Virus record (IMG/VR): IMGVR_UViG_3300047476_001619
Location: 1 to 26,028 of that record
DNA: 26,028 nucleotides
Direction: 5' to 3' (one strand)
From: a virus
Taxonomy: Duplodnaviria; Caudoviricetes
Within the stretch, counting starts at the first letter, position 1, and each line of letters starts with the position of its first letter. The notes beneath the pieces were generated by a model. It was not told the DNA's origin. It did not search any database and saw only the letters and a program-made list of their open reading frames with translations. Positions 2,796 through 23,166 of the stretch are shown piece by piece. The translations under genes and the position numbers were made by a program.

Positions 2796-3056
2796 TTAAT
2801 CTTTTACAGGACATACATGAATACACTGGGCTTCTTCTTCACGTAATGCAATGTGACTTTCTCTACAGTTCACAACCATCATATTTGAATGTTGTTTATT
2901 CAAAATTTTAATTTCACAACCAGGATTGAAGCCTAATTCAGAAAGTCTTGATCTGACAGTTCCACAAATTGATTCAATCTTGTAAGTTTCACCTGCAGAA
3001 CCATCAAATAATGTCATAGTCTTTCCTAGAAAAAGAGCCTTCCGAAGAAGGCTCAT
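2796..3056 (-). CDS. feoA: FeoA-domain (SH3-like) protein
   Basis: RSRLSELGFNPGCEIKIL...IALREEEAQCIHV matches the FeoA consensus RRL.xLG..PG..v.v....iALR..eA..I.V. Start could be the Met at 3017. Confidence 0.85.
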   Translation of the reverse strand: MSLLRKALFLGKTMTLFDGSAGETYKIESICGTVRSRLSELGFNPGCEIKILNKQHSNMMVVNCRESHIALREEEAQCIHVCPVKD

Positions 3057-5862: not shown

Positions 5863-6229
5863 CTATTATCTCTCCATTTTCTTTTGCTTGTAAGTAATCT
5901 TTAATTAAATCTTTTGTAAATTCAGGACAGGGCCAAGGTTCTTCTTCATATTCAAAAGTATGTAAGCTTTGTTCGTCTTCAGAAATTTCCCAATCATCGT
6001 AAGCAAGTAAAACACGTAAAAATTCACTTACGCATTTTTCGGGAAAATCAATATCAGCACATTTTAAAGAAATCATTTCATCTGTCCAATCTTCGCTGAT
6101 TTCAATTGGATACCACTTAATAACTCTTGAATCATTAGCAGCATAGAAAGTGTAAGATTGATTACCTGCCCTTTTTACTTTCTTTGCTCTGCCTTCTTTG
6201 ATTTCTCTTAAAATTTCCCAGCCTGTCAT
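5852..6229 (-). CDS. Divergent DUF2829/Tad2-like protein
   Basis: MTGWEILREIKEGRAKKVKR...LLAYDDWEI matches the family's terminal motifs loosely. Confidence 0.5.
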   Translation of the reverse strand: MTGWEILREIKEGRAKKVKRAGNQSYTFYAANDSRVIKWYPIEISEDWTDEMISLKCADIDFPEKCVSEFLRVLLAYDDWEISEDEQSLHTFEYEEEPWPCPEFTKDLIKDYLQAKENGEIIDDK

Positions 6230-6474
6230 TCTTCATCTACCTTATCTTCTAAATCCCACTCATCAATGTCCCAATCGTCAGCAGCAACGTCTTCAGGTGA
6301 TAAATCAAGTCTATAGGTGATCATTTCGTAATCATCTACTTCGTCATCTTTTTTAATATGGTAAACAAACCAATTGTTTTCTTTTTCAAGATACAAAAAT
6401 CTTCCATCAGGCCAACCACTTCTTGAAATTGGTTTGTATTCCATTAAAGCATCAATTACTTCAGCAAATTTCAT
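6226..6474 (-). CDS. DUF2829/Tad2-like protein
   Basis: MKFAEVIDALMEYKPISRSGW...FLYL...LSPEDVAADDW is close to the family consensus MnF.eAl.alk.Gk.v.R.gW...D.lA.DW. Confidence 0.7.
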   Translation of the reverse strand: MKFAEVIDALMEYKPISRSGWPDGRFLYLEKENNWFVYHIKKDDEVDDYEMITYRLDLSPEDVAADDWDIDEWDLEDKVDEE

Positions 6475-6682
6475 CTAATATCTCCCAGTCATCTTCAAAG
6501 AAATCACCATTGTCTAAAGCATCATAAACACTAATATAATCAGCAAATTCAGATAAATCAGGCACATATTCTGGCACTTTACTATCAGAAAAATAAGCCC
6601 TACATTTTATATCAGGTTCCCAAGATTTTCGCCTTAACGTAAATCCATCTTCTAATTTATCTAATGCTTCTTTGCCAGTCAT
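6461..6682 (-). CDS. DUF2829/Tad2-like protein
   Basis: MTGKEALDKLEDGFTLRRKSW...DFFEDDWEI. Confidence 0.6.
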   Translation of the reverse strand: MTGKEALDKLEDGFTLRRKSWEPDIKCRAYFSDSKVPEYVPDLSEFADYISVYDALDNGDFFEDDWEILDEIC

Positions 6683-8672: not shown

Positions 8673-9218
8673 TTATTTATTTTTGAGAATATCGTTCTGT
8701 ATTCTGTCAACTTCAGCAATAACATCAACAACTTCCCAATCATCTGCAATCAAATCCAAATAAATAAGTTTTCCGTAATTAGCAGCATATTTACCAACAC
8801 CCCAATCAGGATGCCAACTTTTACGCCTGATTGTTTTTCCAGCATATAAATCATCTAAAACATCTTTGAATGTTTTACTCTGAACAACCATCCAATCTTC
8901 AGCAAAAAGATCATCAGTTGTGATTGTAGATTCTGCGTGGTCATATTTTTTTGGAAATAATGTAAGACTAGGATTTCCTTCTCTAGTCATCATTTTTCCA
9001 GCTTCAAGCATCTTAACAGCCCAATTGATGTTTCTCTTAAGCTCAATGTTATTTGTCTTCAAGAAATCATCAAAGTTAGACCCAATATGCTTGTTTTCAA
9101 CTGCATAAGGCAAACAATCTTCGCCTGGGTCAATATAATTCAAAGCAGATTTATTTAATTTTGCTTTCTTGATTTCAACATCATAAAAATATTTTTGATT
9201 TTTAGGCAATTTTTCCAT
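8673..9218 (-). CDS. Protein with two DUF2829/Tad2-like repeats
   Basis: Repeat 1: INWAVKMLEAGKMMTR...DDLFAEDWMVV. Repeat 2: TFKDVLDDLYAGKTIRRKSW...DLIADDWEVV. Preceded by NKHIGSNFDDFLK. Confidence 0.65.
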   Translation of the reverse strand: MEKLPKNQKYFYDVEIKKAKLNKSALNYIDPGEDCLPYAVENKHIGSNFDDFLKTNNIELKRNINWAVKMLEAGKMMTREGNPSLTLFPKKYDHAESTITTDDLFAEDWMVVQSKTFKDVLDDLYAGKTIRRKSWHPDWGVGKYAANYGKLIYLDLIADDWEVVDVIAEVDRIQNDILKNK

Positions 9219-12291: not shown

Positions 12292-12835
12292 GACATTTCT
12301 CCATAAGATGTTTTAACACTCTTGCAGCATTATAAGAATCCCAATAAGGATCGTGCTTATCTCCCTCAAACTTCATACCTAATTCTGCTAAAGATCTTTG
12401 TAAGCCATTGTTATAAGGCTTTCCAGTCATAATAGAATAAAGCAAAGATATATTTACACACTCATTTGAAAAAGGATATTTGCACTGTTTAGTTCTGCAA
12501 TCATAATAAAGTTTCTCACTATCCTGTCCCCAAGCAGCACAAGGATAAGATTTGCCCTTGAATTTTTCCATTATGCTCTTACACATAAATTCAAAGTCAA
12601 CTCCATTTTCAGCCTGCTCTTTTGTAATACCAGTGATACGAGTGCAATAGTCAGAAACTTCAGTCTTTTCTGGCTTGCAAATCATATGAAATTTATCAAC
12701 AATTTCCAAACTCTTAATATCCAAAATACAAGCCCCGAGACTTATAATTTCTCGAGACTTGTATGCGTTTTCTCTACCTTCCCAACAAGTAGCTTCAAGA
12801 TCAAAAACAATTATTTTGTCACAGTTGAAAATCAC
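12278..12835 (-). CDS. DEDDh 3'-5' exonuclease (ERI-1/KapD-like)
   Basis: ExoI VFDLEATCWE, EIISLG, CTRITGIT, AWG.D and ExoIII HDPYWDS.N.A. Confidence 0.88.
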   Translation of the reverse strand: MIFNCDKIIVFDLEATCWEGRENAYKSREIISLGACILDIKSLEIVDKFHMICKPEKTEVSDYCTRITGITKEQAENGVDFEFMCKSIMEKFKGKSYPCAAWGQDSEKLYYDCRTKQCKYPFSNECVNISLLYSIMTGKPYNNGLQRSLAELGMKFEGDKHDPYWDSYNAARVLKHLMEKCREAV

Positions 12836-13448
12836 TAAACATATGTCCCATCTTTAAATCTACCAACAGTTTATCATAATCAACAGTCTTACCATCCCAG
12901 TATGAATCCCTGAAATTTTGAATGGCATCGTAATATTCTGAACGATCATCAAAAAAGATTATTGCTGGATCTTGACCTAAATCACATAAGACTTTCTGCA
13001 ACAATAATCGCCCAGTTCTACCATTACCATCAATGAAAGGATGAATTGTTTCAAAATAATGATGAACACTTAAAGCAGCATCAAAAGCTACGATTTTGCC
13101 ACTTTCAGCATCTCTCATAATCCTTTTAGAAAATTCAAACCAATCATTCATCAAATTTTCAAGCATATATGGACTAGGGCAAGTTTCGTGACCAATCCAG
13201 ACATCCACAGTTCTATACTTGCCCGAATTTCCACTATCCTCAAAGAAAGGAATACCACGAGTGAGAAATCTATGAACGTCTAAAGGGGTAGAAAGATTCA
13301 TCTCCCAACCTTCAGATAAAACAAAATTTAGGGCTGAAAGATGATTGTCGTACATTTTGCAACCTAAATGATCACCCATATAACCAGGCTGCGGATCAAT
13401 CTTATTACTCTCACAAACAAAAATATGCTTCCAAGATTTAACAAACAT
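12819..13448 (-). CDS. Fic/Doc family protein
   Basis: Canonical Fic motif HPFIDGNGRTGR; G.YR...V.IG upstream. Confidence 0.92.
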   Translation of the reverse strand: MFVKSWKHIFVCESNKIDPQPGYMGDHLGCKMYDNHLSALNFVLSEGWEMNLSTPLDVHRFLTRGIPFFEDSGNSGKYRTVDVWIGHETCPSPYMLENLMNDWFEFSKRIMRDAESGKIVAFDAALSVHHYFETIHPFIDGNGRTGRLLLQKVLCDLGQDPAIIFFDDRSEYYDAIQNFRDSYWDGKTVDYDKLLVDLKMGHMFSDFQL

Positions 13449-13544
13449 TTCTTATTACCTCATTTCTCTTAATATCACAAAGAAGCAAACACAACAATAT
13501 ATCAGAATATTAATAGTATACAAAATTAAAGAAAGGAGATAGAA

Positions 13545-13739
13545 ATGTCAATCTTATCAAGCTTGTTAAAGAAAACTATTGGAACACCTGAAGTCAACCT
13601 TAATAAACTCCCATTCGCAAATAAAATTGTCGGAGATTGGGAAAAGAAAAGTATGGAAGATCTTATTAAACAACTTCCAAAAGAAACAATCAAAAGACTT
13701 ATAGATGTCTGCAATAACGAATTAGAAAAAAGAAGTTGA
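13545..13739 (+). CDS. Hypothetical protein
   Basis: 64 aa with strong SD (aaaggag) upstream. Confidence 0.7.
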   Translation: MSILSSLLKKTIGTPEVNLNKLPFANKIVGDWEKKSMEDLIKQLPKETIKRLIDVCNNELEKRS

Positions 13740-13810
13740 AAGCATTTAGAAGATTAGTAGTTTTCTTATTAATTAGTTTCATCACTTATCTTTTATTGTC
13801 AATGAAATAA
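13736..13810 (+). CDS. Putative 24 aa single-TM micropeptide
   Basis: TTG start overlapping the upstream TGA; MKAFRRLVVFLLISFITYLLLSMK. Confidence 0.35.
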   Translation: MKAFRRLVVFLLISFITYLLLSMK

Positions 13811-13832
13811 AAGATTTATCTGGAGGGAAAGT

Positions 13833-13922
13833 ATGAACGACAGAAACAGAAAACGTGATGCTTTATTTGTTATCCTATATAGCATCATAGGGTATTTATT
13901 AATTCTAATTGCTACAAGATAA
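13833..13922 (+). CDS. Putative 29 aa single-TM micropeptide
   Basis: SD ggaggg; MNDRNRKRDALFVILYSIIGYLLILIATR. Confidence 0.55.
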   Translation: MNDRNRKRDALFVILYSIIGYLLILIATR

Positions 13923-13942
13923 ACTTTAAGTATAATTATCTT

Positions 13943-14698
13943 ATGCACGAATACTTAAATAATGATTGTATCGAATATCTAAAAACATTGCAAGACGAAT
14001 CAGTAGACTTAATTCTCACTGATCCACCATACTTTATTGGTTTTGATGGCGGTAAAGGATGGGACAAACAATGGAATTCTGATCAAGATTATTTAGACTG
14101 GTGCGAAAAATGGTCCAAAGAATGCGCTAGAATACTAAAGCCAAACAAGATGATGTGCGTCTTTGGTACTCTTAAATATAATACTTTTCTTCGATATAGA
14201 TTAGAAGTATTAGACAAACTTCCAAACTTCCATCAACAAAATGAAATTATCTGGTCATACAATTGGGGTGGAAGAAGTAAAACAAACTTTGCTAGAAAAC
14301 ACGAATTTATTTGGTGCTACTCTAAAGAAAAAACATTTACTTTTAATGCTGATCAAGTAAGAACAGAAAGAAAACAAAAAGTCAACATCAGAACAGGAAA
14401 AGAATATGAACAAGGTACCATTCCAACTTGTGTCTGGGAAAAGAATAATCACACAACAAGCAAAGAATACTGTAATTGGCACCCTACACAAAAACCAATC
14501 AGCATATTAGAAAGATTTATTCTCGCATATACCAATCCAGGAGAAACAGTATTAGACTTATTTAATGGCGCTGGATCCACTATGATAGCTTGTGAAAATA
14601 CTGGAAGAATATTTAAAGGATGCGAAATTGATCCTGATTACTATGAACAATCAATTGCAAGATACACAACACTTACTGGAAAAGGATTTAAGATATGA
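13943..14698 (+). CDS. Orphan DNA N6-adenine/N4-cytosine methyltransferase, beta class
   Basis: DLILTDPPY (motif IV) near the N-terminus, HPTQKP, and VLDLFNGAGST (motif I) near the C-terminus. Confidence 0.93.
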   Translation: MHEYLNNDCIEYLKTLQDESVDLILTDPPYFIGFDGGKGWDKQWNSDQDYLDWCEKWSKECARILKPNKMMCVFGTLKYNTFLRYRLEVLDKLPNFHQQNEIIWSYNWGGRSKTNFARKHEFIWCYSKEKTFTFNADQVRTERKQKVNIRTGKEYEQGTIPTCVWEKNNHTTSKEYCNWHPTQKPISILERFILAYTNPGETVLDLFNGAGSTMIACENTGRIFKGCEIDPDYYEQSIARYTTLTGKGFKI

Positions 14699-15200: not shown

Positions 15201-15416
15201 ATGAATACAAAACAATTGAAAGTACTAAGCCTTGTCAGTCTTGTACTAGGCTTCGCTTCAATCATCGCATCTATCGCTATCTGGTATCTCACTGGTGGTA
15301 AAACTCCTGAACTACAAGCACACTCCGAACGATTTGGAATCTTTGTCGGACTCTGGGCTCCTACTTTTATGATTCTTTCCAATAGATTTGATCGATACGC
15401 AGAAAACAAAAAGTAA
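15201..15416 (+). CDS. Small two-TM membrane protein
   Basis: SIIASIAIW...ERFGIFVGLWAPTF, a motif I recall from a bacterial small membrane protein family. Confidence 0.75.
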   Translation: MNTKQLKVLSLVSLVLGFASIIASIAIWYLTGGKTPELQAHSERFGIFVGLWAPTFMILSNRFDRYAENKK

Positions 15417-15419
15417 ATT

Positions 15420-15509
15420 ATGAAAGAACAAAAGAAATTTGTAGACATAATCTTTGGATTAGTCGTAGTAATTGCAGTAACAATTATACTAAAAGTCGCT
15501 TGCGATTGA
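15420..15509 (+). CDS. Putative 29 aa single-TM micropeptide
   Basis: MKEQKKFVDIIFGLVVVIAVTIILKVACD, starting 3 nt after the upstream stop. Confidence 0.5.
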   Translation: MKEQKKFVDIIFGLVVVIAVTIILKVACD

Positions 15510-15538
15510 GAATTTTCTTGGTATAATTGTTTTGATGG

Positions 15539-15819
15539 TCCAACTTAGCTCAGCGGAAGAGCAATCGGCTGTGAAAAGATAGCAGCTTATTAGAGTAATT
15601 TAATATAGAAAATTGTCGAAATTCAGTGAAAACTAAGTCGAAAGATATGTCAACACTGAGCCAAGCCTGAAAAGGAAGGTGCAGAGACTATAATGACGAC
15701 ATCCTACTAGGTAATGCTAAGGATGATGGTATAGTCCAGACTACAAACAGTTTATCTGGTAGTGAAAACTATAGTAGTAAGTAACCGATCGGTCGCTGGT
15801 TCGATCCCAGCAGTTGGAG
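15539..15819 (+). tRNA. trnN: tRNA-Asn(GUU), split by a group I intron (exons 15539-15572 and 15782-15819)
   Basis: Joined exons fold as acceptor TCCAACT/AGTTGGA, D arm GCTC/GAGC, anticodon stem ATCGG/CCGAT with loop CT-GT^T-AA, T arm GCTGG-TTCGATC-CCAGC, discriminator G. No encoded CCA. Confidence 0.93.
15573..15781 (+). ncRNA. Group I intron, 209 nt, ORF-less
   Basis: 5' exon ends in U. P1 ggctgt/gcagct has a U-G pair at the splice site. P AAATTCAGTGAAA, Q AACACTGAGC, R GTGCAGAGACTA, S GGTATAGTCC, terminal G. Confidence 0.92.
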
Positions 15820-15822
15820 TGT

Positions 15823-15849
15823 AAAGCCCTCGAATAAATGAGGGCTTTT
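15823..15849 (+). terminator. Intrinsic terminator after tRNA-Asn
   Basis: aaagccctc/gagggcttt followed by T. Confidence 0.65.
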
Positions 15850-15860
15850 AGTTTGAATTT

Positions 15861-15934
15861 GGCCTGTTAGTCGAGTGGTTTAAGATGCGTCCCTTTCACG
15901 GATGAGATCAGGGGTTCGATCCCCCTACAGGCTA
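15861..15934 (+). tRNA. trnE: tRNA-Glu(UUC)
   Basis: Acceptor GGCCTGT/ACAGGCT, anticodon arm CGTCC-CTTTCAC-GGATG, T arm AGGGG-TTCGATC-CCCCT. Confidence 0.93.
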
Positions 15935-15966
15935 TAAATTGTGGTATAATTAGTATGTAAGTTTGT

Positions 15967-16037
15967 TCCCCGGTCGTCTAACGGAAGGACCCGAGTTTTT
16001 GGAGCTTGTTATCGTAGTTCGAGTCTACGCTGGGGAA
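15967..16037 (+). tRNA. trnQ: tRNA-Gln(UUG)
   Basis: Acceptor TCCCCGG/CTGGGGA, anticodon arm CGAGT-TTTTGGA-GCTTG (two G-U pairs), T arm CGTAG-TTCGAGT-CTACG. TGGTATAAT upstream. Confidence 0.85.
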
Positions 16038-16041
16038 TTTT

Positions 16042-16114
16042 GCCAGATTAGTTCATCGGCTAGAACGACGGTTTTGTAAACCGTATGTGGCGGGTTCAAT
16101 TCCTGCATCTGGCT
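16042..16114 (+). tRNA. trnT: tRNA-Thr(UGU)
   Basis: Acceptor GCCAGAT/ATCTGGC, anticodon arm ACGGT-TTTGTAA-ACCGT, T arm GCGGG-TTCAATT-CCTGC. Confidence 0.92.
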
Positions 16115-16164: not shown

Positions 16165-16653
16165 ATGGATAAAACTAATTTAGAAAATTATATTTCACTT
16201 AATTATTCAACTCGCAAAATTGCACAACTAGAAAATAAAAGCCAAACAACAATTCGTCATTGGTTAAAGAAGTACGAACTCAAAACGAACTTAAACACTT
16301 TTGAACTTAACGAATATAAATGCAAGTGTGGCGAAACTAATCCAGAAAAATTTTATGGACACAAAAAATCAGTTTGTGCAGATTGTCATAACGAATATGT
16401 TTTAGGATCTGGAAAAAATAAAAAACAAAAGGCTAGACAGTATCTTGGTGGCTGCTGTAAAATTTGTGGTTTTGATAAGTATCCTTGCTCATTAGACATA
16501 CATCATTTAGATCCAACAGTCAAAGATAATAATTTCAAGTCTATGAGAGGCTGGTCTTGGGAAAGAATTTTACAAGAAATTGAAACTTGTGTTTTATTAT
16601 GCAAAAATTGTCACGCTGCAGTTCATTCTGGTTTAGTTGAAATACCAGAATAA
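16165..16653 (+). CDS. Free-standing HNH endonuclease with N-terminal HTH and zinc-binding motifs
   Basis: HTH-like STRKIAQLENKSQTTIRHWLKKY; CKC...CADC; CKICG...LDIHHLDP..K...CVLLCKNCHAAVH. Confidence 0.88.
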   Translation: MDKTNLENYISLNYSTRKIAQLENKSQTTIRHWLKKYELKTNLNTFELNEYKCKCGETNPEKFYGHKKSVCADCHNEYVLGSGKNKKQKARQYLGGCCKICGFDKYPCSLDIHHLDPTVKDNNFKSMRGWSWERILQEIETCVLLCKNCHAAVHSGLVEIPE

Positions 16654-18458: not shown

Positions 18459-18511
18459 GTTGTGGTATAATTAGAGTGTAAGAGAAATACTTACAAATAA
18501 AAATTGAATAT

Positions 18512-18818
18512 GCCTCGTTAGCTCAGTGGAATTTAGAGCATCCGCCTTTTGAGGATCATATAATAATATGGTCATTTGGAGCCTTTGTAGAGAATAATAA
18601 TCTATAGAGTGGATGGTACTGTATCGGTGAAAGCTAAGTAGAAATATATGCTAATACCGAGGGAAGTTGAGAAGAAATTCTTTAACCCCGTAGAGACTAT
18701 ACGTACCACACCTGAAATGGTGAAGATATAGTCCAGACCACAAACATAGAAATATGGTAGTGAAAACTATAGTGGTAAGCTAAGCGGAGGGTCAGTGGTT
18801 CGAGCCCACTACGAGGTA
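18512..18818 (+). tRNA. trnR: tRNA-Arg(UCU), split by a group I intron (exons 18512-18548 and 18780-18818)
   Basis: Joined exons: acceptor GCCTCGT/ACGAGGT, D arm GCTC/GAGC with A20 (Arg identity element), anticodon stem TCCGC/GCGGA with loop CT-T^CT-AA, T arm AGTGG-TTCGAGC-CCACT. TGTGGTATAAT promoter upstream. Confidence 0.88.
18549..18779 (+). ncRNA. Group I intron, 231 nt, ORF-less
   Basis: P TATCGGTGAAA pairs with Q AATACCGAG; R CGTAGAGACTA; S AAGATATAGTCC; terminal G. 3' region nearly identical to the Asn intron. P1 pairing is less clear, so the 5' boundary is set by the 7-nt anticodon loop. Confidence 0.88.
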
Positions 18819-18823
18819 TCAAT

Positions 18824-19389: not shown

Positions 19390-19437
19390 ATTAGATTTGT
19401 ACAGGTGGAACTAGCTTGGAAAGAAAAAATTATTATT

Positions 19438-20526
19438 ATGTGGTATAGAATAGCTCAACAATTACAACTTCCTGGATTAGATGTAGAAAAATCTGCGCCT
19501 AAAAGCAAAGTAACATCAGAACCAAAAGAAAAAGCTCCAGAACTTTTAGAAACTCAAAAAGAACCTAAAAGTTTATTCTTTAGTGATTGGGCTAAAGATC
19601 ATTACGTTCCTCATCAACCTGTCTATCACGGAACAACACACGAATTTGATAGATTTGATATAAACAAAGGTGTGTCATCTAATGCTTTTGGTCAAGGATT
19701 TTATTTTACTAGTGATGAAAGAGATGCCACTGAAAATTACACTGGTTCTGGGCCTGATCAAAAAGCAAAAATTACAGATCTAGAATATAAATTGATGGAT
19801 GAAAATGATGAAGACGCTTATTATCTATGGAACTTGTATGGTGATGATCCAAGATACCGCCCTTATTTTAACGAAGACGGGACTGTTGCAAGCCTTCAAT
19901 ACTTAGTAGAAAAAATTGCAAATGATACTGTTTTAGGTGCCAATAAGTCAAGAGTAATTCCAGCTCATATAAGAATGAAAAATCCATTGCACTTGACATC
20001 AGAAGGCGATACAGAACATCCAGAAAAAACTTTTGTTGATGATACAGATGAGACACTAGAGTTTTTTAATGAAAACGATGTTGATGAGTCTGATAATAAT
20101 TCTTATAAGACAGTAATTATGAAACTTCACAATATTTTATTAGATTATATGGATTCAGATGAAGCATATCAAATTTGTGAAGATTTGATACAGTATACAA
20201 CTGGATCTGTTGATGGTGCAGTTTCTGCAGTTATGATGATGAATAGTCTTAAGGGATCTTTAGCAACTTTTGACAATGATAATGACACAGATTATAAGGG
20301 TGAAATTATTCAAAGATTTTTAAATTCAATAGGGTACGACAGTATAATTATGAATCCTAATGAATTTTTCAGAATGTATTCAAAAGAAAAACCTATCAAG
20401 CACTATATTACTTGGGATCCTGAAAATATAAAACACGCTAGAGAAAATCTTGAATTTGATCCAAGCAATCCTGTTATCACTGCTAATAGTGGTAGAATTA
20501 ATTTATGGAAGAATTCTTTGCTGTAG
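19438..20526 (+). CDS. ADP-ribosyltransferase-like (ART-PolyVal-type) domain protein (start revised to 19438)
   Basis: VYHGTTHEFDRFD...FGQGFYFTSD...A.NY, VIPAHIRMKNPL, GYDSII and WDPENIK. Starts MWYRIAQ. Confidence 0.7.
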   Translation: MWYRIAQQLQLPGLDVEKSAPKSKVTSEPKEKAPELLETQKEPKSLFFSDWAKDHYVPHQPVYHGTTHEFDRFDINKGVSSNAFGQGFYFTSDERDATENYTGSGPDQKAKITDLEYKLMDENDEDAYYLWNLYGDDPRYRPYFNEDGTVASLQYLVEKIANDTVLGANKSRVIPAHIRMKNPLHLTSEGDTEHPEKTFVDDTDETLEFFNENDVDESDNNSYKTVIMKLHNILLDYMDSDEAYQICEDLIQYTTGSVDGAVSAVMMMNSLKGSLATFDNDNDTDYKGEIIQRFLNSIGYDSIIMNPNEFFRMYSKEKPIKHYITWDPENIKHARENLEFDPSNPVITANSGRINLWKNSLL

Positions 20527-20902: not shown

Positions 20903-21367
20903 ATGTACGCCAATTTGTTATTAAAAATCGCACAAAAGTTAGACACTTCCCAAGAATATAAATTGGCAGACAAAATTGAACGTATTGCACAAGATATGTC
21001 AATTCCATTTTATATGTATCCAACACAGCAAAAAGATACCTATAAAAATAGAATTCCAATGAAAGAAAATTTCGTGCAAGATTCCAAAGTAGAAATTGAT
21101 AATAAATTTGGACAAGACGCAAAAATATATCTTCAGCAAATGATAAGGGATCCATTACTATTTGATCATCCGCAATCAAAAATAATGTTGGATACGATAA
21201 TGAATGATCCAACTTACAAAATGGATAAATCATCATTTGTAAAGATGATTAATGAATATAGAAATCATTACGAAAAACTTAATGAAAGCAGAAATGATGT
21301 AAAAGCTCTATCAGAATTAGAACCAGAACTTCATAAACATTTAGATAATATGGTGAGTAAATTATAA
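20903..21367 (+). CDS. Hypothetical protein with N-terminal KIAQKLD...YKLADK motif
   Basis: 154 aa; motif shared with two other proteins in this window. Confidence 0.75.
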   Translation: MYANLLLKIAQKLDTSQEYKLADKIERIAQDMSIPFYMYPTQQKDTYKNRIPMKENFVQDSKVEIDNKFGQDAKIYLQQMIRDPLLFDHPQSKIMLDTIMNDPTYKMDKSSFVKMINEYRNHYEKLNESRNDVKALSELEPELHKHLDNMVSKL

Positions 21368-23166
21368 TGTGGTATTACAGAACAGTTTTAGCTGCAATTG
21401 AAGATGCAATAAATGCACTACAGTCAAAAGGTGTCAATGAAGCAATAATTCAATTTGTTCACTCCTTACCTGATAATCAAAAAGGTAAAGCTATTGGTGC
21501 TTTGAATCAAAACCCCTCAATGATGATAGATGACTTGAAAAATCTATTTCAATCTGGATATAGACCATCAACTCAAGAATTGCAATTAACTGCAGATTAT
21601 GATCCAAGATTTAAGAGCTGGGCATTGCATCAATATAAACTCTTAAGAGCTAATAAACTAAATGATGATCCCAAAGATGATAGGTGGGTATATAAATATC
21701 TTCCAAGCGAAATAAAAGATAAAATTGATGAAGTACACGACTTTTATAGAGCACACGTTTTAGATAATCCTAATTATAATATTGGAACTAAATCATTCGA
21801 AGAAGCTTATGAAGATTCTAATGAGTGGCATAGAGCAATATCTGAAAGAGGATCAGGAAAATTCTATCTACCTTTTGTTAGAGATGAATCTGGAAATATA
21901 GTTGACGAAAAAATTGTTCATAGATTTGATGATGGTTCTATGATGGTTAGAGTTGAAGATCCAAACGATTTAGATGTCGAAGGTAATTTTATGCATCATT
22001 GTGTTGGATCATATGCAAGACAAGTAGAATCTGGAGATTGTACTATATATTCCTTGAGAAGTAAGTTCAATCAGCCTCAAGCAACAATTGAAGTTGGCAG
22101 AGATGGAACAGTAAAACAAATCAAAGGCCCACACAATTCAGAAATTCACGATGATGATTTAGTTGAAAAAATAAGTGATTTCTTTGAAGGTAGAGATGAT
22201 ATTAATAAAACTGCTGGAAATAGTCTCACACATCAAAGAGCGGAAGAATGGTACTCGGGAGAAGTGGAATGGGAAAATGGTCCTGATGAAATTAAATATG
22301 GTATTCACGAATTTGCTTATGGACCATACCTTGAAGGATATTATGACGAAGAAGCTGATGGAGATTTTTCAAGATTTGGCATACACGGAAATTCTTGGGA
22401 AAATAAAGACCAAGAAGAATTTGAAGAAAATAATCTTAGAAATTTAGATACAGATGAATTAGTTGATCAAACTGTTACTCAAATTAAAGACGCAGTAGAT
22501 GGAAAAAGAACTTATGGCAAAATTTATCAACTTGAAGATTATGATTTTGAAGACTTAGCAAAAACAATTGTTGATATTGCTTATAAACAATTAGAATCTG
22601 TAATTGATAGAGAAGATAACTTAACTGATGAGTATTTGGCTAGAATAAGTGGTTATTTAACAAAAGAAGATATTGAAAATTATAAATATCAAAGAATAAG
22701 GCAAATATTAGGAAATAATTCATTATTGAGTTTATTATATAATTTTGCCAAACATTATTCTGGATGGGAAGAATATGTCAGAACACCAGATTCAGAAGAT
22801 TATGAGCATTTAGGTGATTCAGACTCTTATGGCAGAAGAGCTATGCAATTAATGAGAGATTCTGAAGATAAATTACGTCTTGAAATTGCAAAACTTATTT
22901 ATGAAACTTATCAAGATCATCCAGTAGTTAAGAAATTTGAAGAAACATTTAATACAAAGTTTATTCTTCCTGAAATTTCAACAATTGAAGAGGGAGAACA
23001 CAGAGCTCAAATGAGACACTTAACTTCTCAATATACAGATCCAAGTCAATTAAGATTCCAAGATCTTCCAGAAGGTGAATCTTTCAATTTAGCAAGACAT
23101 AAAAAGAAACAAAAGCAATATGACACTGATGGAGAAGAACTTGTTCTACCAGATGATTTTGAATAA
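21367..23166 (+). CDS. PcfJ-like domain protein with acidic C-terminal half
   Basis: DLDVEGNFMHHCVGSY...V.SG...IYSLR....PQATIEV...VKQIKG..N matches the PcfJ-like pattern. Starts MWYYRTVLA. Confidence 0.78.
   Translation: MWYYRTVLAAIEDAINALQSKGVNEAIIQFVHSLPDNQKGKAIGALNQNPSMMIDDLKNLFQSGYRPSTQELQLTADYDPRFKSWALHQYKLLRANKLNDDPKDDRWVYKYLPSEIKDKIDEVHDFYRAHVLDNPNYNIGTKSFEEAYEDSNEWHRAISERGSGKFYLPFVRDESGNIVDEKIVHRFDDGSMMVRVEDPNDLDVEGNFMHHCVGSYARQVESGDCTIYSLRSKFNQPQATIEVGRDGTVKQIKGPHNSEIHDDDLVEKISDFFEGRDDINKTAGNSLTHQRAEEWYSGEVEWENGPDEIKYGIHEFAYGPYLEGYYDEEADGDFSRFGIHGNSWENKDQEEFEENNLRNLDTDELVDQTVTQIKDAVDGKRTYGKIYQLEDYDFEDLAKTIVDIAYKQLESVIDREDNLTDEYLARISGYLTKEDIENYKYQRIRQILGNNSLLSLLYNFAKHYSGWEEYVRTPDSEDYEHLGDSDSYGRRAMQLMRDSEDKLRLEIAKLIYETYQDHPVVKKFEETFNTKFILPEISTIEEGEHRAQMRHLTSQYTDPSQLRFQDLPEGESFNLARHKKKQKQYDTDGEELVLPDDFE

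Follow-up and report, generated by a model that had tools for sequence, protein, structure and literature searches.

A 209-nt group I intron splits the tRNA-Asn(GUU) gene of the window (the whole 26,028-nt stretch of DNA analyzed here) between anticodon bases 35 and 36. It is of a known kind, the group I introns of bacterial tRNA genes, in a host for which we found no printed description. We conclude that the intron is genuine and probably active, and on balance we favor the reading that it is a compact, ORF-less element that likely splices itself and likely spreads among related phages with the aid of a free-standing HNH endonuclease, which many of these relatives encode just downstream. The gene and its immediate surroundings comprise the following features:

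15500..15527, + strand: sigma-70-like promoter with an extended -10, a few bases 5' of tRNA-Asn (10/12 matches)
15539..15572, + strand: tRNA-Asn(GUU) 5' exon, positions 1-35, ending C32 U33 G34 U35
15573..15781, + strand: ORF-less group I intron of IC3-like build, 209 nt (RF00028, fold, covariation)
15782..15819, + strand: tRNA-Asn 3' exon, positions 36-73, with discriminator G73; CCA not encoded
15820..15859, + strand: 40-nt spacer with a hairpin, empty here; in relatives, an ~890-nt cassette with a free-standing HNH gene
15860..16114, + strand: uninterrupted tRNA-Glu(UUC), tRNA-Gln(UUG) and tRNA-Thr(UGU) genes (ARAGORN, Infernal)
16165..16653, + strand: free-standing HNH endonuclease gene, 162 aa, after tRNA-Thr (phrog_2255, E 2.9e-27)

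The split tRNA-Asn gene and its group I intron

When the whole window was scanned, the Rfam group I model RF00028 matched positions 15563-15754 with E 2.8e-18 and 77.3 bits, above its gathering score of 50. Plain ARAGORN calls three tRNAs (Glu, Gln, Thr) and overlooks the Asn gene, as a preliminary description of this DNA had anticipated for tRNA finders; with its intron option, ARAGORN reports Asn(gtt) i(35,209), in keeping with the claim that removing 15573-15781 leaves a complete tRNA-Asn cloverleaf. Joining alone is weak evidence, however, since 356 of 780 trial excisions yielded some tRNA call, and the junctions were therefore scored. The 35/36 junction scored highest (121.8 vs 116.3 for the runner-up), and it is unable to slide because the end bases of the intron differ. 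The exon-gap-exon pattern was met in 0/100 shuffles. The joined exons form a perfect cloverleaf with the GUU anticodon and discriminator G73 that serve as identity elements of tRNA-Asn. In addition, the exons of one intron-bearing relative (L289) are identical to the uninterrupted genes of eight loci (L263-L266, L270, L272, L280 and L282). Since identical exons occur with and without the insert, its site and ends are fixed. The Asn(GUU) 35/36 intron of the preliminary description is thus upheld by the covariance-model match, the junction score and the empty alleles.

The promoter match is weak when taken alone, as the region holds 13 such sites vs 8.8 expected. In 9 of 12 related contigs, the same arrangement lies ahead of the gene with the intron, and the + strand of the window has exactly three copies of the 8-base extended -10 motif (15520, 15943 and 18464), each just before a tRNA gene.

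Within the intron, the following elements were recognized:

15582..15587, + strand: internal guide sequence, forming a P1 of 5-6 bp with the exon end; G15582 pairs with U35
15588..15605, + strand: P2 hairpin with a GNRA tetraloop, GUAA (RF00028 match, fold, pairing statistics)
15613..15737, + strand: catalytic core P3-P8, without P5abc and without an insert between P7 and P3
15613-18 with 15694-99, + strand: P3 of the core
15623-28 with 15654-59, + strand: P4 of the core
15632-50, + strand: P5, a 19-nt hairpin with an 11-nt motif that we take to be tetraloop-receptor-like
15660-82, + strand: P6 of the core
15684-91 with 15731-37, + strand: P7 of the core, with the guanosine site
15700-25, + strand: P8 of the core
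15740..15781, + strand: 3' domain, in which P9.1 and a GAAA-capped P9 meet at a three-way junction closed by a long P9.0; the terminal G follows

The predicted fold of the precursor (-73.3 kcal/mol, z -3.1, with 0/200 shuffles as good) contains the acceptor stem, the D and T arms, P1, P2 and P4-P9; P3 is a pseudoknot and hence is not displayed. All core pairs form in the window, including, in P7, the G-C pair that follows a bulged base and binds guanosine. The U·G pair at the 5' splice site (U15572·G15582, in P1), the paired P3-P7 core and the terminal G (G15781) agree with the splice-site pair, core motifs and final G that had been read from the letters beforehand.

Pairing was further assessed across 82 diverse, non-redundant family members. 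P3, which is in none of the search patterns, is paired in 99% of cells (485/492) vs 54% after shuffling; the corresponding values are 99% vs 89% for P4, 99 vs 74 for P5 and 74 vs 47 for P2, and P8 and P9 likewise pair above shuffles. P6, P7 and P9.0 give no covariation signal because they are nearly invariant. The 82 rows are mutually related and were gathered through the 3' motif, and therefore only P2-P8 count as independent pairing evidence. The guide sequence tracks its host exon, with at least four contiguous P1 pairs in 66 of 103 introns vs 2% of 8030 swapped pairs, and a U precedes the intron in 98/98 mapped viral loci, although the script did not require it.

IC3 introns have no extra helix between P7 and P3, and carry GNRA loops on P2 and P9 with receptors for them. 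The Asn intron has a P7-P3 linker of 2 nt and the loops GUAA and GAAA; together with its receptor-like motif, where docking is predicted, and the lack of P5a-d, which characterizes the subgroup in the part of PMC11835236 that deals with it, these features make it IC3-like by build, which is not a formal subgroup assignment. As far as the relevant portions of PMC13168695 and PMC3895272 describe them, the classical bacterial IC3 tRNA introns (Azoarcus pre-tRNA-Ile and cyanobacterial tRNA-Leu(UAA)) are likewise ~205-210 nt long, ORF-less and placed in the anticodon loop, and they share P1-P9 without P5abc. The phage Asn intron differs from them in its phage host, in its Asn 35/36 site and in a P1 of 5-6 bp rather than 3-4. 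It also forms a long branch, with at most 72% identity over 102 core columns to any other class.

We infer from the intact anatomy and from group I chemistry that the Asn intron splices. Specifically, the guide sequence would pair with the exon end, free guanosine bound in P7 would cut after U35, and the exon would then attack after the terminal G, leaving a normal tRNA. We expect nothing unusual in the ribozyme chemistry itself. In the contigs of six metatranscriptome runs, related intron sequence was present in five, including unspliced copies from relatives, and no trustworthy spliced junction was found. One contig (run X17) in which 15782 directly follows 15572 was not accepted as evidence of splicing: it has seven mismatches in 73 exon bases and other flanks, and it probably represents another, uninterrupted gene because it is mismatched and differs from the intron-bearing allele of the same run. 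A 169-nt contig lying wholly inside the intron (run X20, depth 17.8) could be the excised intron and proves nothing. Mature tRNAs are rarely captured in such libraries.

A dead relic within a tRNA pseudogene would also leave no spliced product in six runs that hold unspliced copies from relatives. We consider this very improbable, since the core pairs, guanosine site, U·G pair and terminal G are all intact, the 15 copies of the Asn intron differ mainly in loops and peripheral helices, and the exons make a perfect cloverleaf.

A second intron and the phage that carries both

The preliminary description overlooked a second intron-split tRNA gene in the window, for Arg(UCU):

18512..18548, + strand: tRNA-Arg(UCU) 5' exon, positions 1-34
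18549..18779, + strand: ORF-less group I intron, 231 nt, site 34/35 (RF00028 local scan, fold, empty alleles)
18780..18818, + strand: tRNA-Arg(UCU) 3' exon (junction scoring)

RF00028 did not detect this intron in the scan of the whole window; a local scan gave E 9e-12 and 49.8 bits, marginally short of the gathering score. Its predicted fold (z -3.7) has a long P1 extension, and its 3' domain shares the architecture of the Asn intron. ARAGORN flagged 18511-18820 with a wrong junction, and its Lys(ttt) and Ser(gct) calls were rejected for lack of the right junction signs. The Arg(UCU) junction was chosen because it alone combines a preceding U, a terminal G and a match to empty alleles. The intron is optional: of 19 related IMG/VR contigs in which the Arg gene is visible, 4 have it, and the Arg exons of L270 and L271, interrupted in one and not in the other, are nearly the same. 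In the tree of intron cores it falls within the bacterial Arg(UCU) 34/35 introns (support 99/89), and a sister pairing of the window's two introns meets borderline rejection (p-AU 0.049). By their core sequences the two are probably not sisters, and we take the Arg intron to be an independently acquired element of this type.

The preliminary description had also asked whether the contig is viral or cellular. The window contains no clear structural gene; its genes include a methylase, a RusA-like gene, Fic, Tad2-like genes, PcfJ and HNH. The genome tool classed the contig as a virus record. A 358-kb relative (G405, estimated 89% complete) is syntenic with the window, covers 18,175 of its 26,028 bases at 72-84% identity, and, among the 108 of its 129 long ORFs that were scanned, encodes a portal, large terminase, major head protein, head protease and rIIA/B. 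As judged from this synteny, the contig is a fragment of a tailed jumbo phage (>200 kb genome), with the portal, terminase, capsid and size found in G405 and not within the window itself. The alternative, that the contig is cellular (e.g., from Patescibacteria), would fit the lack of a clear structural gene in the window and the blank results for Pfam Gp23 and Terminase_6N in five related records, where the Gp23 control was also blank. Given the virus record class and the synteny with a genome that carries portal, terminase and head genes, a cellular origin is refuted as far as sequence allows and we hold it to be extremely improbable; the viral assignment of the preliminary description stands.

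The best-matching sequencing runs come mostly from freshwater or estuaries. An Atlas look-up of a small membrane protein (15201-15416) points to Verrucomicrobiota, as a host lead only and with few labeled members. Three Tad2-like (Thoeris anti-defense) genes lie at 6226-6474, 6461-6682 and 8673-9218, one of them below the Pfam cut-off, and other domains include FeoA (2796-3056), Fic (12819-13448), ART-PolyVal (19405-20526) and PcfJ (21367-23166). Between 19405 and 25983, several large, mutually unrelated ORFs have a short motif in common at a terminus, either MWY at the N-terminal start or a segment KIAQKLD. The GC skew changes sign at ~13500-14000, where gene orientation switches from minus to plus. 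A copy of the after-Thr HNH gene with 62% identity occupies the same place in L401.

Related introns in viruses and bacteria

A tRNA gene with a self-splicing intron had been expected to be unusual in a virus. We found instead that the same family is common there. Using the 3' motif shared by both window introns as a pattern, we sampled 120 IMG/VR loci (not independent genomes) of an estimated 190, and 99 of them map to tRNA genes: Leu(UAA) 34/35 in 72, Asn 35/36 in 10, UCA 34/35 in 6, Arg(UCU) 34/35 in 4 and 33/34 in 3, Met 33/34 in 2 and Lys 34/35 in 2. A tRNA-like 3' half lies downstream in 18 of the 21 unmapped loci. A 32/33 site assigned to 29 loci was discarded as an artefact of taking an earlier G as the intron end; with the 3' end fixed, they become Leu(UAA) 34/35. 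Two alignments with poorly placed gaps were left out of the counts. The cultured jumbo phage Atu_ph07 (MF403008, L123:2253-2611) carries an unannotated tRNA-Leu(UAA) gene with a 278-nt group I intron at L123:2287-2564 (RF00028, 48.9 bits). In a 57-kb scan RF00028 matched 0 of 8 loci, and these blanks are filter losses, because small scans matched two of the same loci (48.9 and 89.1 bits). A metagenome scan gave 15 true matches among 83.

Further tRNA introns occur in the huge-phage records L002, L124, L125 and L001: LR756501 (735 kb) has a Leu intron, LR756508 a Lys intron and a possible Arg intron beside a HEARO RNA, and LR745208 a possible Ile(UAU) intron. An Arg(CCU) 36/37 intron was seen in a Microcoleus phage. 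In six loci (L005, L034, L056, L061, L070 and L074), introns of 341-346 nt at 34/35 lie in tRNAs that would read UCA once spliced and are possible hidden TGA-decoding tRNAs. The same 3' intron domain also occurs outside tRNA genes (L126 (OQ198718), L011 and L027), for example in a split DnaB gene of a crAss-like phage with a GIY-YIG ORF.

In GTDB, a looser 3' pattern sampled 120 loci of an estimated 330. No tRNA-Asn was among the 99 that mapped, and the bacterial introns retrieved with the 3' motif included Leu(UAA) 34/35, Arg(CCU) 36/37 and Met(CAU) 33/34. The GTDB set (L143-L262) also includes 37 loci with tRNA-Arg(UCU) 34/35 introns, mostly in Bacillaceae and relatives, and a 656-nt Leu intron in a possibly misbinned Woesearchaeota bin (L164). 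The preliminary description had listed four classic bacterial classes (Leu, fMet, Ile and Arg), which is dated: as far as its text was available, Williams 2020 (10.1101/2020.01.27.920355) counts 21 classes in bacterial tRNAs, from bacterial and archaeal genomes only, with phages not covered.

Asn 35/36 introns have reportedly been described in Patescibacteria in a paper on tRNA introns of that group, and the preliminary description said as much. A separate pattern was run on 401 Patescibacteria genomes, after which 20 Asn-like stretches chosen by hand and 30 loci taken automatically were examined. Such introns exist: 23 rows were called Asn (one a duplicate) and two were miscalled His, and RF00028 matched 20/20 of the fetched stretches. 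They share the tRNA, the 35/36 site and the start of the guide sequence with the phage Asn intron. In contrast, their P7-to-S stretch has a median of 66 nt vs 41 in the phage, and their S-to-terminal-G distance is 27-29 nt, with a single P9 hairpin in 21/21, vs 44 nt; the insert after P7 and the single P9 mark the Patescibacteria architecture, and the phage Asn intron has neither. Because the build differs, an independent origin of the two is suggested at the level of build. A common clade is not rejected (p-AU 0.156, with 106 columns and a long branch), and the intron tree neither joins the Asn intron to the Patescibacteria introns nor separates it from them. An HNH ORF of the same family as the HNH encoded after tRNA-Asn in the phages lies within the P1 loop in 17 of the 25 Patescibacteria rows. 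The 3' end of such ORFs runs through the guide sequence in L415 and L434-L460. The Patescibacteria HNHs are 41% identical to the after-Asn HNH and 42% to a second phage HNH encoded after tRNA-Glu, and the HNH tree does not separate the targets.

In the sections of the Hausner 2014 review that concern phages (PMC3984707), group I introns of phages are all placed in protein genes despite the many phage tRNA genes; the window alone holds two in tRNA genes. A literature search whose scope did not extend to subscription papers or bioRxiv supplements turned up no phage tRNA gene described as carrying a group I intron, and the available text of PMC12350094, PMC11878797, PMC12880540, PMC7162821, PMC11835236, PMC4177764 and PMC12619734 makes no mention of one. 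A close precedent is the set of inserts in Lak megaphage tRNAs (Devoto 2019, PMC6784885, 10.1101/356790), which also lie in anticodon loops of phage tRNA genes and are present or absent between strains. In the accessible part of Table S6 they measure 23-141 nt and are thus too short for a group I ribozyme, and the listed inserts gave no Rfam group I match. Given that the family turns up often in viral contigs and has escaped annotation in a cultured jumbo phage, standard tools underestimate the number of phage tRNAs.

Presence, absence and probable spread of the Asn intron

Twenty-eight related IMG/VR contigs were found through neighboring proteins, and 14 of them contain the Asn intron. On a 25-row tree of the adjacent methylase gene, its gain or loss accounts for four changes. 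The Asn introns are 92-98% identical across four unlike tRNA bodies, whose exons fall to 52% identity, and the fourfold-degenerate sites of the adjacent methylase are only 39-66% identical to those of the window. Part of the high intron identity may come from structural constraint, which has to be considered because the Arg introns, beside which we found no HNH gene in relatives, are also 90.5-97% identical.

The HNH genes after tRNA-Asn form a distinct clade (252-261 aa, e.g., L132:2188-2946; 74-90% identical, phrog_2255) and stand directly downstream of that gene; the after-Thr HNH of the window is of the same broad family, at 26-33% identity to the HNHs of relatives. The after-Asn HNH is present in 11 contigs with the intron and in one without it, which has a variant anticodon stem, and is absent from four contigs with the intron (the window included) and from 13 without it, two of which carry another HNH. 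This association has a Fisher p of 0.0005 raw and 0.011 after near-copies were collapsed by hand. Adding eight metagenome contigs, which were found through the intron itself, brings the total to 37, with p 0.0006 raw and 0.069 after automatic collapse to 24; the independent intron/HNH pairs number three, which gives no power. In these contigs, the HNH-intron link weakens once near-copies are collapsed, and linkage alone would also make adjacent genes travel together. Identical tRNA-Glu anticodon arms are seen both with and without the after-Asn HNH, and therefore tRNA-Glu looks less like its target.

Our leading, unproven reading of these gene patterns is collaborative homing. During co-infection, the HNH would cut uninterrupted tRNA-Asn alleles, the intron would shield the allele it occupies, and repair would transfer the intron to the cut one. 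The window intron would be a passenger, because the window lacks the after-Asn HNH. Precedents include an ORF-less intron with a free-standing endonuclease in cyanophage psbA, as treated in the pertinent part of PMC3984707, and SegB of T4/T6, which cuts tRNA genes and sits in a phage tRNA array, according to the passage on it in PMC13096335. As in those cases, the nuclease gene is free-standing, beside an ORF-less intron or within a tRNA array; unlike in them, the candidate target is a tRNA anticodon, the nuclease is an HNH, and the window is without the partner gene. The unlike tRNA bodies share ~7 bases at the site, which makes transfer hard for ordinary homologous repair, and movement between them may need short-homology repair or reverse splicing.

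The latter leads to a rival reading, in which the intron is just as active but needs no HNH to spread. It would enter other tRNA-Asn transcripts by reverse splicing, or move by short-homology recombination within a tRNA array whose slots exchange alleles freely, and the HNH would merely hitch-hike or home independently to a site nearby. This reading would account for the unchanged guide sequence across the four unlike tRNA bodies, for the 8 of 23 intron-bearing contigs that have ordinary empty spacers in place of the HNH, for the alleles that also reassort in the Glu, Gln, Thr and Arg slots, and for the same pattern in the Arg intron, beside which no HNH was found. However, 15 of the 16 contigs with the after-Asn HNH carry the intron (in the set of 37, eight of which were found through it), Patescibacteria introns at this very site encode the same HNH family, and mobility by reverse splicing has no direct experimental support in the portion of PMC3984707 that treats it. 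We therefore regard HNH-free spread as rather unlikely, though of appreciable weight. Because the clade contains alleles with and without the intron, and with and without the candidate nuclease, the spread of ORF-less tRNA introns is directly testable.

The intron might also be kept for a benefit to the phage, e.g., by hiding the precursor anticodon from host anticodon nucleases or by timing the tRNA supply. In its favor, the anticodon is where two of the window's five tRNA genes are split, relatives differ strongly in their anticodon arms, and tRNA-targeting defenses and phage tRNA countermeasures are documented in the accessible part of PMC13096335. Half of the relatives, including the 358-kb one, nevertheless do without the intron, and the mature tRNA would gain nothing, since splicing would yield the same tRNA that relatives encode without interruption. 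This leaves a benefit improbable in our view.

Returning to collaborative homing, we tentatively offer a broader version, which we think possible but doubtful: jumbo phages, with tRNA arrays rich in such introns at several anticodon sites, would be the missing vehicle for ORF-less tRNA group I introns; one anticodon-homing HNH family would drive them, sitting inside the intron in Patescibacteria or beside it in phages, and introns of different build would have colonized Asn 35/36 twice because that family targets the site.

Beyond the intron, the tRNA slots of this region (Asn, Glu, Gln, Thr and Arg; 15539-16114 and L263-L309) each hold several unlike alleles that reassort among close relatives like swappable cassettes. 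The HNH after tRNA-Glu (L286:7134-7895 and relatives) forms a separate clade. In 6 of 8 contigs it accompanies one particular Gln allele, a hint that it may home on tRNA-Gln without an intron.
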